From assembly GCA_963705885.1 (NCBI GenBank), contig OY970120.1, positions 98,179-162,178 of the forward strand: 64,000 bases of DNA. The letters run 5' to 3'. Source of the stretch: an uncultured Actinomycetota bacterium (GTDB taxonomy: Bacteria > Actinomycetota > Actinomycetes > JACCUZ01). The position numbers and the translations under genes were made by a program. The notes beneath the pieces were generated by a model, which was not told the DNA's origin, did no database searches, and saw nothing but the letters and a program-made list of their open reading frames with translations. This document shows, piece after piece, positions 5,761 to 53,106 of the stretch; the stretch's first letter is position 1; every line of letters begins with the position of its first letter.

Positions 5761-7311
5761 ATGGCCGAGCGCCGTTCCACCGTCACGTACCGCGAAGCCG
5801 ACCAGGACTACTTCGCCAAGCGCACCCTGCGCCGTCACGCCGGGGTCTGGTCGCTGTGGGCCCTGGGCGTCGCGGCGGTCATCTCCGGCGACTTCTTCGG
5901 CTGGAACTTCGGCCTGGAGTTCGGCTTCGGCGGGCTGCTGGTCGCCACCGTGGTCATCACGGTCATGTACCTCGGCCTGTGCTACTCCATCGCCGAGATG
6001 TCACCCGCCCTGCCGCACACCGGCGGCGCCTACTCGTTCGGCCGCACCGCGATGGGGCCGTGGGGGGGCTTCGTCACCGGCGTCGCCGAGAGCATCGAGT
6101 ACATCGTCACCCCGGCCGTCATCGTCGTCGGCATCGGCGGCTACATGGACTCGATCACCGACGACCTGTTCGGCTTCTCGATGCCGGCGCCGATCTGGTG
6201 GGCGATCTTCTACGGGCTGTTCGTCGGCCTCAACGTCTTCGGCGTCGAGGCCTCGTTCCGGTTCTCGGTCTTCATCTGCCTCGCTGCGCTCGCGATCCTC
6301 GTCGTGTTCTGGGCCGGCGCCCTGACCAAGCTCGACTTCCAGGCGCAGGCGATCGACTCGGTCGGCGGCTGGTTCCCCGACGGCATCAAGGGAGTGTTCT
6401 TCGCGATCCCGTTCGCCATCTGGTTCTACCTCGCGATCGAGGAGCTGCCGCTCGCAGCCGAGGAGTCGCACGATCCTCGCGTCGACATCCCGCGCGGCAC
6501 GATCTACGGCCTGTTCACGCTGATCGCGGCGGCGTTCCTCACGCTCTTCCTCAGCGCCGGCATCGCCCCCGGGTCGGGTGAGCTCAGCGAGTCGGCCGAG
6601 CCGCTCTTCGACGGGCTGAAGACGATCTTCGGCGACGGCACGGCCGCGTCACTGCTCGCGCTCATCGCGGTCACCGGTCTGGTCGCCAGCTTCCACACGA
6701 TCATCTTCGCCTACGGCCGCAACATCTACTCGCTCTCGCGTGCGGGCTACTTCCCGCACGCGCTCTCGGTCACCCACGGCACCCGCCAGACGCCGCACGT
6801 GGCCCTGCTGACCGGCGCCGTGATCGGCTACATCCTCGCGCTCATCCTCGAGTACTCCGGGTCCGACAGCGTCGGTGCTGCCCTGCTCACCATGGCGGTC
6901 TTCGGCGCGGTCATCTCCTACGTCATGCAGATGGTGTCCTTCGTGCTGCTCCGACGCAGGCGGCCGAACATCGAGCGGCCCTACCGCAGCCCTCTCGGTG
7001 AGTGGGGAGCCATCGTGGCCGGGGTCATCGCGGCGGTGTCGCTGGTGTCGCTGTTCTTCAACGCCGACTACCGGCCCGGGGTCGTGGGCGTCGCGATCTG
7101 GTTCGCGCTCGCGATCCTGTACTTCGCCGTGGTCGGTCGTCACAAGCTGATCCTGTCGCCGGAGGAGGAGTTCGCCACGACCGGCGGGGCGCACGGTGCG
7201 CACCTCGAGACCGAGGGCTACGGCACCACCCACGTCTCCGACATCGTCGGCGACGGTGCCGCCGCGCCGCCGCAGGACCCCGCCGCCCGCCCGCCGTCGA
7301 CGACGGGCTGA
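5761..7311 (+). CDS. ethanolamine permease (APC superfamily, Eat type)
   Basis: 516 aa polytopic membrane protein with an ethanolamine-permease-like N-terminus (TVTYREADQDYFAKRTLRRHAGVWSLWALGV); GAGAGGGA RBS before ATG 5761. Confidence 0.8.
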   Translation: MAERRSTVTYREADQDYFAKRTLRRHAGVWSLWALGVAAVISGDFFGWNFGLEFGFGGLLVATVVITVMYLGLCYSIAEMSPALPHTGGAYSFGRTAMGPWGGFVTGVAESIEYIVTPAVIVVGIGGYMDSITDDLFGFSMPAPIWWAIFYGLFVGLNVFGVEASFRFSVFICLAALAILVVFWAGALTKLDFQAQAIDSVGGWFPDGIKGVFFAIPFAIWFYLAIEELPLAAEESHDPRVDIPRGTIYGLFTLIAAAFLTLFLSAGIAPGSGELSESAEPLFDGLKTIFGDGTAASLLALIAVTGLVASFHTIIFAYGRNIYSLSRAGYFPHALSVTHGTRQTPHVALLTGAVIGYILALILEYSGSDSVGAALLTMAVFGAVISYVMQMVSFVLLRRRRPNIERPYRSPLGEWGAIVAGVIAAVSLVSLFFNADYRPGVVGVAIWFALAILYFAVVGRHKLILSPEEEFATTGGAHGAHLETEGYGTTHVSDIVGDGAAAPPQDPAARPPSTTG

Positions 7312-36721: not shown

Positions 36722-37864
36722 ATGCCCGCCCCCAGCATCGAGCAGGTCCAGGCTGCCCTGGCAACGGTCGACGACCCCGAGATCCACAAGCCGATCACCG
36801 ACCTCGGCATGGTCAAGTCGGTCGACATCGGCCCCGGTGGCGACGTCGCGGTGGCGATCTACCTCACGGTGGCCGGCTGCCCGATGAAGGACACGATCAC
36901 CTCGCGCGTCACGACGGCGGTGCAGGCCGTCGAGGGGGTCACCGGCGTCCGGGTCGACCTTGACGTCATGTCGTCGGCGCAGCGCCAGGAGATGCAGTCC
37001 CGGCTGCGCGCGGAGTCGGGGATGACCGAGCGCGAGATCCCCTTCGCCCGCGCCGGGTCCCTGACCCGGGTCTACGCCGTGGCGTCCGGCAAGGGCGGGG
37101 TCGGCAAGTCGTCCGTCACGGTCAACCTCGCGGCGGCGATGGCCCGCTCCGGGCTCTCGGTCGGCGTCGTGGACGCCGACATCTACGGGCACTCCGTGCC
37201 GCGCATGCTCGGCGTCACCGGCCGGCCCACGCAGGTCGAGGACATGATCATGCCGCCCTCGGCGCACGGCGTGCGGGTCATCTCGATCGGCATGTTCGTG
37301 GCCGACAACCAGCCCGTCGTGTGGCGCGGCCCGATGCTGCACCGCGCGCTCCAGCAGTTCCTCGGCGACGTGTTCTGGGGGGACCTCGACGTGCTGCTCA
37401 TGGACCTGCCGCCGGGCACCGGCGATATCGCCATCTCGGTGGCCCAGCTCGTGCCCACGGCCGAGCTGCTGGTGGTCACCACCCCGCAGCAGGCGGCGGC
37501 CGAGGTGGCCGAGCGGGCCGGCACCATCGCGCTGCAGACCCACCAGCAGATCGCCGGCGTCGTCGAGAACATGTCCTACCTGCCGTGCCCCCACTGCGAC
37601 GAGCGGGTCGAGGTGTTCGGCAGCGGCGGCGGCCAGGCGGTCGCCGACGGGCTCACGCGCTCGGTCGGTGCGCCCGTGCCGCTTCTCGGCGAGGTGCCGA
37701 TCGACATGCGCCTGCGCGAGGGCGGCGACACCGGGCGGCCCCTGGTCCTCGACGACCCGGACGCCCCGGCCTCCCGCGTGCTCATGGACGTGGCCGACCG
37801 GCTGGGTCACCGGGCGCGCGGCCTTGCCGGGCGCTCGCTGGGCTTGACCCCGGCCGGGCGCTGA
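36722..37864 (+). CDS. mrp: Mrp/ApbC Fe-S cluster carrier ATPase with N-terminal DUF59
   Basis: Walker A GKGGVGKSS, CPHC-type cysteine pair (LPCPHCD), DUF59 N-terminus. Confidence 0.9.
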   Translation: MPAPSIEQVQAALATVDDPEIHKPITDLGMVKSVDIGPGGDVAVAIYLTVAGCPMKDTITSRVTTAVQAVEGVTGVRVDLDVMSSAQRQEMQSRLRAESGMTEREIPFARAGSLTRVYAVASGKGGVGKSSVTVNLAAAMARSGLSVGVVDADIYGHSVPRMLGVTGRPTQVEDMIMPPSAHGVRVISIGMFVADNQPVVWRGPMLHRALQQFLGDVFWGDLDVLLMDLPPGTGDIAISVAQLVPTAELLVVTTPQQAAAEVAERAGTIALQTHQQIAGVVENMSYLPCPHCDERVEVFGSGGGQAVADGLTRSVGAPVPLLGEVPIDMRLREGGDTGRPLVLDDPDAPASRVLMDVADRLGHRARGLAGRSLGLTPAGR

Positions 37865-38079
37865 CGGGCCGACGATCGGCCACGCCCCGCATCGGACTGC
37901 GTACGGCAGGGCGGCTCGACCGCGACCGTCTCCGCGGTGGAGTCGACGACGCTTTGGGCGAGGAGTCGCTGGCCTCCCCCGCGGCCCACGCGGCTGTGCC
38001 GGCGTGCTCGGAGGTGTGACAGCCGGGGCTGCCGCCCTGTCTTGTGGTGTGTAGCGCGTCCTCGACGAAGGAGTTCACG

Positions 38080-39009
38080 ATGAGAGTGCTTGTCGCTGGG
38101 GCAACGGGGGCGATCGGACGGCAGCTGGTGCCACGTCTGGTCGAGGCAGGGCACGAGGTCCATGGCATGACGCGCAGCGGGTCGAAGCAGGCGATGCTCG
38201 ACGACTTGGGCGCCGTGCCGGTCGTCGCGGATGCGCTTGACCCCGACCAGGTGGCCGAAGCCGTGGGGAGGGCGAGGCCGGAGGTGATCGTCCATCAACT
38301 GACAGCTATCGGATCGCTCGACCCGCGGCACTTCGACCGCGACTTCGCACTGACCAACCGCCTACGAACCGAAGGGACGGACCACCTGCTGTCGGCGGGC
38401 CAGGCGATGGGGGCGCGGCGGATCGTGGCGCAGAGCTATGGCGCGTGGCCGTACGAGCGCACCGGCGGGCCGGTGAAGAGCGAGGAGGACCCGCTCGACC
38501 CGACGCCCGCACGCGAGATGCGCGAGACCTTGGCCGCGATCCGACACCTCGAGAAGGCGGTCCTGGGCGCGCGGTGGACCGAGGGGATCGTGCTGCGCTA
38601 CGGCGCGTTCTACGGTCCCGGCACCTCGATGACGCCGGGTAGTGAGCAGTTCGAGCTGGTCCGCAGGCGCAAGTTCCCGCTGGTCGGCGACGGCGGCGGC
38701 GTGTGGTCCTTCATCCACATCGCCGACGCGGCGGAGGCGACAGTGGCAGCGGTAGCGCGCGGCAGCCGCGGTGTCTACAACGTCGTCGACGATGATCCCG
38801 CCCCGGTCGCCGAGTGGCTGCCGGCGCTGGCGCAGGAGCTCGGCGCCAGGAAGCCGATGCGCGTGCCGCGGTTCGTCGGGAGGCTGTTCGCCGGGGAAGC
38901 CGGCGTCGTGATGATGACAGAGGTTCGCGGCGCGTCGAACGCGAAGGCCAAGCGTGAGCTCGGTTGGCGCCCGGCGCACCCGAGCTGGCGAGGCGGGTTC
39001 GCGGCATGA
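38080..39009 (+). CDS. NAD(P)-dependent epimerase/dehydratase-family oxidoreductase (ECF41-associated COE-type gene)
   Basis: Rossmann VLVAGATGAIG; GAAGGAG RBS 7 nt before ATG 38080; codon usage visibly atypical (AGA, CTT, GCT, GCA, CAA, CTA, GTA, GAT). Confidence 0.8.
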   Translation: MRVLVAGATGAIGRQLVPRLVEAGHEVHGMTRSGSKQAMLDDLGAVPVVADALDPDQVAEAVGRARPEVIVHQLTAIGSLDPRHFDRDFALTNRLRTEGTDHLLSAGQAMGARRIVAQSYGAWPYERTGGPVKSEEDPLDPTPAREMRETLAAIRHLEKAVLGARWTEGIVLRYGAFYGPGTSMTPGSEQFELVRRRKFPLVGDGGGVWSFIHIADAAEATVAAVARGSRGVYNVVDDDPAPVAEWLPALAQELGARKPMRVPRFVGRLFAGEAGVVMMTEVRGASNAKAKRELGWRPAHPSWRGGFAA

Positions 39010-39147
39010 CCGCGGCTGCTCACCGTGTGGGCGCTCGACATCGCCGACGGTCAGATCAGGGGCATCAGCTCGATCGTCAACCCCGACAAGCCCACGCACC
39101 TCGGGCCGGTCGGCGACTTCGGATCGCTCCTGCGGTCCGCGAGATGA
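39010..39147 (+). pseudogene. remnant of ECF41 (SigJ-type) sigma-factor C-terminus, in frame directly after the epimerase TGA
   Basis: Translation PRLLTVWALDIADGQIRGISSIVNPDKPTHLGPVGDFGSLLRSAR* carries the NPDK-type C-terminal motif of ECF41 sigma factors; no start codon and no sigma2/sigma4 regions are present. Confidence 0.4.
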
Positions 39148-39182
39148 CGGCAACCCGCGACCAACGTCCTGGCCGGGTACCG

Positions 39183-39542
39183 CTAGGTAGCGTCGGAGTC
39201 GTAGCGGGGCGACCCGCCGTCCGGGGCCGGGGGTGAGCCCGGCCCCCTGCGGTCGGCCGGCTTGGGGCGCTGCGGCCGGTCGTCGTCGAGGGAGTCGAGG
39301 TCGACCGGCTCGAGCAGGTGCTTGCGCACCATCGCGCGCGGGTCGAGGTCACGGATCGAGAGGTCGTCGAACTCCGGGCCGAGCTCGCGGCGCACCTCGG
39401 CGCGCGCGTCGTTGGCCATGTCGCGAACCTTCCGAAGGACCCGCGCCGCCTCGGCCGCGTAGCGCGGCAGCTTCTCGGGCCCGAGGACGATCAGGGCGAC
39501 GATCGCCAGCGCGACGAACTCACCCGCGCCGATGCCCAACAC
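39183..39542 (-). CDS. tatB: Sec-independent protein translocase TatB/TatA-family
   Basis: MLGIGAGEFVALAIVALIVLGPEKLP Tat N-terminus; acidic/Pro-rich tail. Confidence 0.8.
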   Translation of the reverse strand: MLGIGAGEFVALAIVALIVLGPEKLPRYAAEAARVLRKVRDMANDARAEVRRELGPEFDDLSIRDLDPRAMVRKHLLEPVDLDSLDDDRPQRPKPADRRGPGSPPAPDGGSPRYDSDAT

Positions 39543-39554
39543 GCAGCGATCCTC

Positions 39555-40877
<1,323 letters not shown>

Positions 40878-52596: not shown

Positions 52597-53106
52597 GTGG
52601 CTGACGCGACCGAGGGCGACACGTCGGCTGCCCGGCGCTACGAGGACCTCTTCCACGGCCACTTCGGCGCGATGACCCGGCTGGCCGCCATGCTCGGCGC
52701 CGACGACCCCGAGGACGTCGCCCAGGAGGCGTTCGTCCGGCTGCACCAGCGCGGCCGCACGCTGCGCGACCCGCACGCCGCGATCGGCTACCTGCGCACC
52801 ACCGTCGTCAACATCTCGCGCTCCCGCCTGCGCCACCTCTCCGTCGTCCGCCGCCACCGACAGCAGGCGCCGCCCGACGCGGCGTCCGCCGAGCACGACG
52901 TCGTACGCCGGGAAGGTGACCGTGAGCTGCTCGCCGCGATGCGTCACCTGTCGGCCCGCCACCGCGAGGCGCTCGTCCTGCGCTTCTGGCTCGACCTCAC
53001 CGAGGCCGAGATGGCCGACGCCATGGGCGTCAGCCGCGGCACCGTCAAGTCCCACGTCTCGCGGGGGCTCGACGCCCTCGCCGCCCTGATGGAGGGCACC
53101 CGATGA
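52597..53106 (+). CDS. ECF sigma factor
   Basis: Region 2 (YEDLFHGHFGAMTRLA...DVAQEAFVRL) and region 4 (LTEAEMADAMGVSRGTVKSHVSRG); GTG 52597. Confidence 0.8.
   Translation: MADATEGDTSAARRYEDLFHGHFGAMTRLAAMLGADDPEDVAQEAFVRLHQRGRTLRDPHAAIGYLRTTVVNISRSRLRHLSVVRRHRQQAPPDAASAEHDVVRREGDRELLAAMRHLSARHREALVLRFWLDLTEAEMADAMGVSRGTVKSHVSRGLDALAALMEGTR

Follow-up and report, generated by a model that had tools for sequence, protein, structure and literature searches.

Organisation of the locus

The window, by which we mean the whole stretch of 64,000 nucleotides that was analysed, comes from an uncultured actinobacterium and has the conserved actinobacterial arrangement of an mrp gene beside tatB-htrA-rseB-like genes. 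Between mrp and tatB lies a gene for an NAD-dependent epimerase, followed in the same frame by a short run that resembles the end of an ECF41 sigma factor. The features of this region are as follows.

36722–37864, plus strand: mrp/apbC-like gene for an Fe-S cluster carrier ATPase, the resident left flank (Pfam PF10609, E = 1.3e-90, and PF01883; 98% amino acid identity in L085)
37866–39184, no strand: segment between the mrp and tatB stops that is without counterpart in L085 (blastn) and holds the epimerase/sigma-remnant cassette
38015–38041, plus strand: putative ECF41-type promoter TGTGACA-N16-TGTC, with the -35 element at 38015–38021 and the -10 element at 38038–38041 (81-locus alignment)
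38068–38073, plus strand: Shine-Dalgarno sequence AAGGAG of the epimerase gene, 6–7 nt 5' of the ATG, a column block kept in the 81-locus alignment
38080–39009, plus strand: intact gene for an NAD-dependent epimerase/dehydratase (SDR) of 309 amino acids (Pfam PF01370, E = 1.8e-23), the COE partner of the lost sigma factor and the gene that it would have controlled
39006–39012, plus strand: 5' stub of a sigma gene, ATGACCG, whose ATG overlaps the epimerase TGA (ATGA) and is followed by ACCG; the left-hand homology ends at sigma nt 7
39006–39236, plus strand: out-of-frame reading frame, MTAAAHRVGARHRRRSDQ..., that follows the native sigma start codon (listed as 38964–39236 among the open reading frames)
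39013–39147, plus strand: 3' remnant of the ECF41 sigma gene, codons 262–305 plus stop (tblastn with the L007 sigma factor; C-terminal positions of NCBIfam models)
39183–39542, minus strand: tatB-like gene, the convergent resident right flank (Pfam PF02416; 95% amino acid identity in L085)

The epimerase is, as the preliminary description held, an intact COE partner. It is a full-length PF01370 protein that scores 83.7 bits against a gathering cut-off of 20.9 and carries the NAD-binding GxxGxxG motif as GATGAIG at residues 7–13, and this score and motif place it in the extended SDR (NAD-dependent epimerase/dehydratase) family. Its start, previously set at GTG 38044, is corrected here to ATG 38080, as this ATG and the AAGGAG at 38068–38073 are common to all relatives. 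Aligned over its full length with 84 relatives, the protein is 80–92% identical with dN/dS values of 0.09–0.16 and, on these comparisons, looks constrained. The epimerase also matches NCBIfam NF058621 (3-diazoavenalumate denitrifying reductase AvaA7 equivalog) over its full length with 288.8 bits; it is an AvaA7 homologue that falls below the equivalog cut-off of 400 and is therefore not filed as an equivalog, and the match offers a possible hint at the chemistry of the COE clade to which it belongs.

Behind the epimerase TGA at 39007–39009 the same frame is open from 39010 to a TGA at 39145–39147, 35 nt from the tatB stop, and reads PRLLTVWALDIADGQIRGISSIVNPDKPTHLGPVGDFGSLLRSAR up to that second stop. 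Both the sequence and the list of open reading frames bear out this uninterrupted run, as first described.

A sigma factor tail behind the epimerase

The similarity of this 45-residue fragment to ECF41 C-termini, also proposed earlier, proved real and far above chance in NCBIfam, in tblastn against a relative and in matches at the DNA level. Only two of 18,950 NCBIfam models matched the fragment, SigJ NF007214 (model positions 262–289 of 293, E = 0.006) and TIGR02957 (positions 252–280 of 281, E = 0.02). The sigma factor of L007, an intact syntenic relative, aligned through residues 262–305 of its 305 with 75% identity (tblastn, E = 8e-14), and at the nucleotide level positions 39012–39147 of the window are 76–87% identical to the sigma 3' end in more than 45 loci. 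The 45 residues had no match in Pfam or in a PDB sequence search, the fragment being too short.

Three intact syntenic sigma reading frames (L007, L014 and L028) were scored against the curated cut-offs, and reached 329–338 bits with TIGR02957 (cut-off 323) and 307–320 bits with SigJ NF007214 (cut-off 271), whereas the window fragment stays at 14–16 bits, below both; we therefore regard the window sequence as the remnant of a family member and not as a member itself. Intact relatives carry PF04542 and PF08281. The L007 protein comprises sigma regions 2 and 4 and a SnoaL_2-like extension, contains the motifs WLPEP (as EWLPEP), DGGGK (as GDGGGK) and NPDKL, and aligns with the Mycobacterium tuberculosis SigJ structure 5XE7 over residues 11–290 (E = 1.2e-46). 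The window fragment has neither a sigma-70 region 2 nor a region 4 domain (tblastn matched residues 262–305 only, and Pfam nothing), and the WLPEP linker and DGGGK motifs, both present in L007, are absent from the window. What is left of the C-terminal extension is its last 44 residues, which match the ends of the SigJ and TIGR02957 models, span the last strands of the SnoaL-like fold and read NPDKP where NPDKL is expected; the residue concerned, Leu288, is leucine in 40 of 40 intact relatives.

Searching the 64-kb window with the L007 sigma factor by tblastn revealed no further pieces beyond residues 262–305. An ECF-type sigma gene does lie 13 kb downstream (52690–53064, plus strand), with 29% identity to sigma regions 2–4 of an ECF41 relative; it is unrelated, is not an ECF41 gene and has no match to the SnoaL-like tail.

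The intact cassette in related genomes

An epimerase scan of one genome per species yielded 80 loci, with proteins 80–92% identical, and together the relatives and the window provided 85 epimerase copies for comparison. In related loci, window positions 38013–39012 align to one block and positions 39012–39147 to a second block about 776 nt further downstream, the latter in more than 45 loci. Between these blocks, next to the epimerase, 50 of the 85 copies contain a 305-codon reading frame that is an intact ECF41/SigJ gene, which upholds the earlier proposal of a deletion: the intact gene sits exactly between the homology blocks in relatives, and the window is without 776 nt of it. Four other copies have an essentially complete sigma gene with a frameshift, an insertion within it or a contig end cutting it, three are cut off earlier by contig ends, 11 retain partial sigma remnants and in 17 no sigma sequence was detectable.

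The epimerase is always upstream in the relatives, in the order >COE> >ECF>. In intact copies the sigma ATG overlaps the epimerase TGA (GCATGACC...), the gene begins GCATGACCGATCGCGAGC (MTDRERLL...), its product has the C-terminal end ...VNPDKLTHLGPV.DF.SLLRSAR and the 305-codon frame ends ...VNPDKLTHLGPVADFRSLLRSAR. The ATGA overlap at the epimerase stop is conserved in most related copies, the window included in having a PF01370 epimerase immediately upstream and the sigma ATG across its stop, so that the ECF41–COE pairing invoked in the preliminary description is evident here in its >COE> >ECF> form.

Across the related loci (L001–L080, with the epimerase at about 6001–6930 in each) the cassette is 80–92% identical in amino acids and about 80–89% identical in nucleotides. 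It occurs in Actinomycetota, Chloroflexota, Dormibacterota and Myxococcota (an Anaeromyxobacter soli isolate, L076), often in two or three copies per genome, as in the CAWIDF and CAVSUS MAGs, and the star-like epimerase tree suggests frequent horizontal transfer. One locus (L041:6001–8033) has two tandem epimerases, 81% identical in amino acids to that of the window, each followed by a short N-terminal sigma stub. A second, paralogous epimerase (about 60% amino acid identity) is found within about 2.5 kb of the main copy in eight loci: upstream on the same strand in L001, L003 and L008–L010, and on the opposite strand upstream in L043 and downstream in L048 and L064.

An internal deletion of 776 nt

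Comparison with the intact genes locates the junction precisely. After ATGACCG the window continues CGG CTG CTC..., that is, with sigma codon R262 onward, and sigma nt 8–783 (776 nt) are missing. The statement that the sigma gene is reduced to its last 44 codons behind the epimerase thus stands, as codons 262–305 plus stop, with the addition of the 7-nt stub at the 5' end. The accompanying claim that no N-terminal sigma fragment precedes the epimerase holds for the region upstream, and is amended for the region downstream, where the ATGACCG stub is preserved.

As 776 leaves a remainder of 2 on division by 3, the sigma ATG and the remnant are in different frames, and the frame that this ATG opens (39006–39236) is junk made by the deletion. 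The remnant is in the epimerase frame by coincidence only, the chance of this being one in three. The first residue of the 45-residue run, P (39010–39012), is an artefact of the junction, made of ACC and G from the sigma start; the homologous part begins at 39013. As the TGA is the conserved native epimerase stop, the epimerase and the tail do not form a fusion. Read directly, the junction sequences share a 2-nt CG microhomology, ATGAC[CG]GCTG. The intact sigma gene also contains AGCGGCTG repeats, which encode ERL at codons 5–7 and QRL at codons 261–263.

Insertion between mrp and tatB

The closest genomic relative, the metagenome contig L085, aligns with the window at 94.5% nucleotide identity as far as 37865 and from 39185 onward, and not in between. 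Its Mrp is 98% identical, its TatB and HtrA are 95% identical, and its mrp-tatB spacer of 161 nt contains no epimerase and no sigma sequence. The adjacency of mrp and tatB extends to L085–L092 and to most other relatives, down to about 70% Mrp identity. Since mrp adjoins tatB without the cassette in L085 and these relatives, we interpret 37866–39184 as a recent, lineage-specific cassette insertion. None of the 80 cassette loci shares the flanks of the window cassette. At the cassette borders, comparison with L085 disclosed no target-site duplication, terminal repeats or mobile-element genes. In the spacer of L085 (L085:1540–1720), the mrp 3' end (CCCCGGCCGGGCGCTGAC) is present as three to four direct repeats, which hints that the mrp-tatB spacer is recombinationally unstable.

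Promoter and expression of the epimerase

ECF41 factors are described as controlling essentially one operon, made up of the COE gene and the sigma gene, from the specific promoter TGTCACA-n16-CGTC, which in the >COE>>ECF> arrangement precedes the COE gene (Wecke et al. 2012, PMC3426412). In line with this, 68 of 81 upstream regions, including that of the window, carry TGT(C/G)AC(A/G)-N15-17-(T/C)GTC. The spacer is 16 nt in 66 of these 68, the -10 element is TGTC in 53 and CGTC in 15, and the -35 element is TGTCACA in 65 of the 81 loci. Measured against the published TGTCACA-N16-CGTC, the window promoter has the exact spacing and a -10 element, TGTC, that is common in the clade, and its -35 element, TGTGACA, shows a C-to-G change found in the window only.

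Some loci have copies of a block of about 50 nt homologous to window 37996–38054, which holds the ECF41 promoter, at about 0.4–1.2 kb upstream of the epimerase (L068:5447–5535, L045:2950–3003, L039:4771–4827, L013:5485–5533 and L052:5050–5093). From their sequence, these extra copies may be second ECF41-dependent promoters.

With the sigma gene reduced to a remnant, the window epimerase has probably lost its dedicated activator. A scan of 37800–39600 found no sigma-70 promoters and no intrinsic terminators. The mrp gene is on the same strand, 215 nt upstream of the epimerase, with no terminator-like site between them. The epimerase may now be silent, be read through from mrp or depend on a paralogous ECF41 encoded elsewhere in the genome.

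Recurrent loss of the sigma gene

In 28 of the 85 copies, about a third, the sigma gene has been lost and the epimerase kept. The loss alleles with other junctions (among them L062, L033, L006, L037, L040, L051, L072, L079 and L041) are scattered over the epimerase tree, and sigma loss with retention of the epimerase thus recurs independently. Their left breakpoints all fall within sigma nt 0–145 and, where a 3' end survives, the right breakpoints fall within nt 642–881 of 918. Remnants confined to the edges of the sigma gene in this way are what deletional decay bounded by selected neighbours predicts. Comparable deletions are present in the isolate genomes of Modestobacter (L033) and Anaeromyxobacter (L076).

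Two left breakpoints are used repeatedly: ATGACCG in the window, L062, L032 and L076, and a site after codon 19 (FAIA) in L033, L079, L041 and P0052. The left breakpoint sites adjoin CGATCGCG / GCGATCGC palindromes. A layout like that of the window is found in L062 only, with a junction 21 nt further in, and in part in L032, and the exact window junction had 0 matches in JGI metagenome contigs. The left breakpoint common to L062, L032 and the window could reflect a shared older allele. However, in the epimerase tree neither locus is placed beside the window, and the remnant of L062 stands at 89.2% identity to intact genes and 89.5% to the window; on these sequence comparisons, the three deletions are most likely independent.

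L079:1–1100 carries the first 19 codons of the sigma gene joined to a tail of the SnoaL-like 'ester cyclase' type, and the annotation of P0116 (14 members) is that of an epimerase/ester-cyclase fusion.

A conserved mini-gene was at one stage suggested by a large-database search, in which the 45 residues retrieved 53 short proteins; these are mostly longer C-terminal pieces of sigma factors, and the candidate was rejected. Three of the short proteins were traced to their contigs. One (L082) starts at a contig end, another (L081) lies in a sigma gene broken across frames, and the third (L083) is a C-terminal sigma remnant beside an unrelated ABC-transporter gene, with no epimerase. A few of the 53 are independent deletion derivatives.

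State of the remnant

Apart from two residues unique to the window, Pro288 and a Thr at position 265, the remnant is well preserved. L288P and the -35 change of the promoter are signs of decay. The dN/dS of the 44 codons has a median of 0.60 as compared with 0.54 in comparisons between intact genes, which is no difference, and relaxed selection is not demonstrable from substitution rates over a stretch so short and after an event so recent. This resemblance to intact pairs indicates that the deletion happened recently when compared with the split from the closest cassettes sampled (88–89% nucleotide identity). The remnant and its downstream spacer gave a fold z-score of 0.11, which indicates no structured RNA element, and the source assembly has no gene called on the remnant. 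Given that GTG 39025 has no ribosome-binding site before it, that the key motif is mutated, and that neither a source gene call nor an RNA-structure signal is present, the remnant is best read as non-functional.

Interpretation of the locus

Taken together, these data lead us to read the 44 codons as the tail of an ECF41 sigma gene after an internal deletion of 776 nt, a pseudogene scar in a recently acquired two-gene cassette, and we put the probability of this reading at roughly 90%. The original state would have been a >COE> >ECF41> operon with a promoter TGTCACA-N16-YGTC, in which the epimerase gene was followed by a translationally coupled 305-codon SigJ-type sigma gene (through the ATGA overlap) and the sigma factor would have autoregulated this single epimerase-sigma operon. 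The two-gene cassette, moving horizontally among soil bacteria, would then have inserted into the mrp-tatB spacer of an actinobacterial lineage. After that, the internal deletion of sigma nt 8–783 would have taken out sigma regions 2 and 4 along with the greater part of the SnoaL-like extension. The order given here, insertion first and deletion after, is presumed, and the reverse order would also be possible. A route in two steps would be equally consistent with the data, namely an in-frame loss of 768 nt between the AGCGGCTG repeats followed by a loss of 8 nt (ATCGCGAG). Elsewhere, a repeat-mediated loss of this kind appears to have given rise to a database protein, P0050 (...FERLLAGVW...). 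The scar probably persists because further loss leftward would damage the epimerase and rightward tatB, only 35 nt away.

Several readings compete with this internal deletion. The 40–44 codons might be a free-standing small gene, for example from GTG 39025 (MWALDIADGQ...), whose product would act as the distal inhibitory piece of ECF41 in trans on a paralogous ECF41. The distal C-terminal extension is indeed inhibitory in cis, its truncation making ECF41 20–120 times more active (PMC3426412), identity of the remnant to intact tails remains at 75%, sigma 3' ends are kept in at least eight independent deletion alleles, and with GTG 39025 only 16 nt past the epimerase stop re-initiation is conceivable. 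However, that GTG has no Shine-Dalgarno sequence, the invariant leucine of NPDKL is proline in the window, the source assembly has no gene call at this place, and a SnoaL-like fragment of 44 residues would be unlikely to fold alone. Moreover, the nearest epimerase relatives have intact sigma genes, the other deletion alleles differ in junction and frame, several of them with stops or decay (L033), and most of the short database proteins that match the remnant hold a longer part of the sigma tail than is left in the window. A small gene of this kind is thus highly improbable, and a genuine independent gene in relatives, the outcome that the preliminary description had named as fatal to a remnant, is unlikely given that the layout recurs only in L062, with another junction, and partly in L032. 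We give equally little credence to the related idea that the last 40–140 nt kept in at least eight alleles reflect selection for an inhibitory NPDK(L) peptide that damps paralogous ECF41 factors in trans, in place of bounded decay. It has likewise been suggested that an epimerase insertion overwrote a sigma gene resident at this chromosomal site, and the direct abutment of remnant and epimerase, with no sigma N-terminus upstream, would suit such an event. Yet relatives with 81–98% identical Mrp have mrp beside tatB and no sigma gene, and the epimerase and remnant make up one contiguous unit, homologous to cassettes elsewhere, in which the sigma ATG still overlaps the epimerase stop. The replacement of the sigma gene by the epimerase proposed earlier is therefore the least credible of these readings, at odds both with the canonical >COE> >ECF> order and with the nearest genomes, which have no sigma gene at the site.

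The remaining possibility is an error of assembly or sequencing, either through the dropping of 776 nt from an intact sigma gene or through a false TGA that hides a 45-residue fusion tail on the epimerase. The window does come from a metagenome assembly (ENA ERZ25039498), the related MAG loci L002 and L003 contain probable frameshift errors, and real epimerase-ECF41 fusion frames exist elsewhere. Those genuine fusions, however, join the epimerase to a full-length sigma factor and not to a 44-residue tail, and the TGA is part of the ATGA overlap of most related copies, which makes the erroneous stop at 39007–39010 raised in the preliminary description unlikely. In addition, a junction microhomology of only 2 nt offers no repeat to collapse, deletions of the same kind are seen in the Modestobacter and Anaeromyxobacter isolates, and the extra marks of decay (L288P and the -35 change) fit a real dead gene. 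We consider such an error very unlikely. The proper annotation of the locus is accordingly that of an ECF41 gene remnant, neither a fusion nor a small gene.

Comparison with known systems

The locus is an ordinary pseudogene remnant of a well-described system. The ECF41/COE operons of Bacillus licheniformis (Ecf41Bli-YdfG) and Rhodobacter sphaeroides (Ecf41Rsp-RSP_0606; Wecke et al. 2012, PMC3426412) have the same order, >COE> >ECF>, a promoter of the TGTCACA-N16-CGTC type at the COE gene and a SnoaL-like extension ending in NPDK(L), all of which are found in the intact relatives of the locus. The window departs from these operons in that its sigma gene amounts to 7 nt and 44 codons, its motif reads NPDKP and its -35 element reads TGTGACA; its COE partner is an epimerase-family SDR and not a carboxymuconolactone decarboxylase. 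In M. tuberculosis SigJ (Rv3328c; PDB 5XE7), the counterpart of the remnant is the final set of strands in the SnoaL_2-like domain, surrounding the NPDK motif. The remnant has neither a PDB match of its own nor sigma2 or sigma4 domains, and it cannot be a sigma factor.

The likeness to epimerase-ECF41 fusions (L036:6001–7875; P0054–P0104, 607–664 amino acids), in which the epimerase is followed by ECF41 in one frame, is superficial: the fusions comprise a full-length sigma factor behind a short linker and no stop, in contrast to the genuine stop and 44-codon tail of the window. Many clusters of such fusions were retrieved from JGI and ENA, with 48–83% identity and about 100% coverage. The COE-ECF41 fusion family looks real, although frameshift errors at the ATGA overlap might account for some of the cases with a single member. 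The locus matters little by itself; for ECF41 biology the wider pattern is modestly useful, in drawing attention to a highly conserved cassette shared across phyla, to the frequent loss of the sigma factor with the enzyme kept and to natural fusions of the epimerase with its sigma factor.
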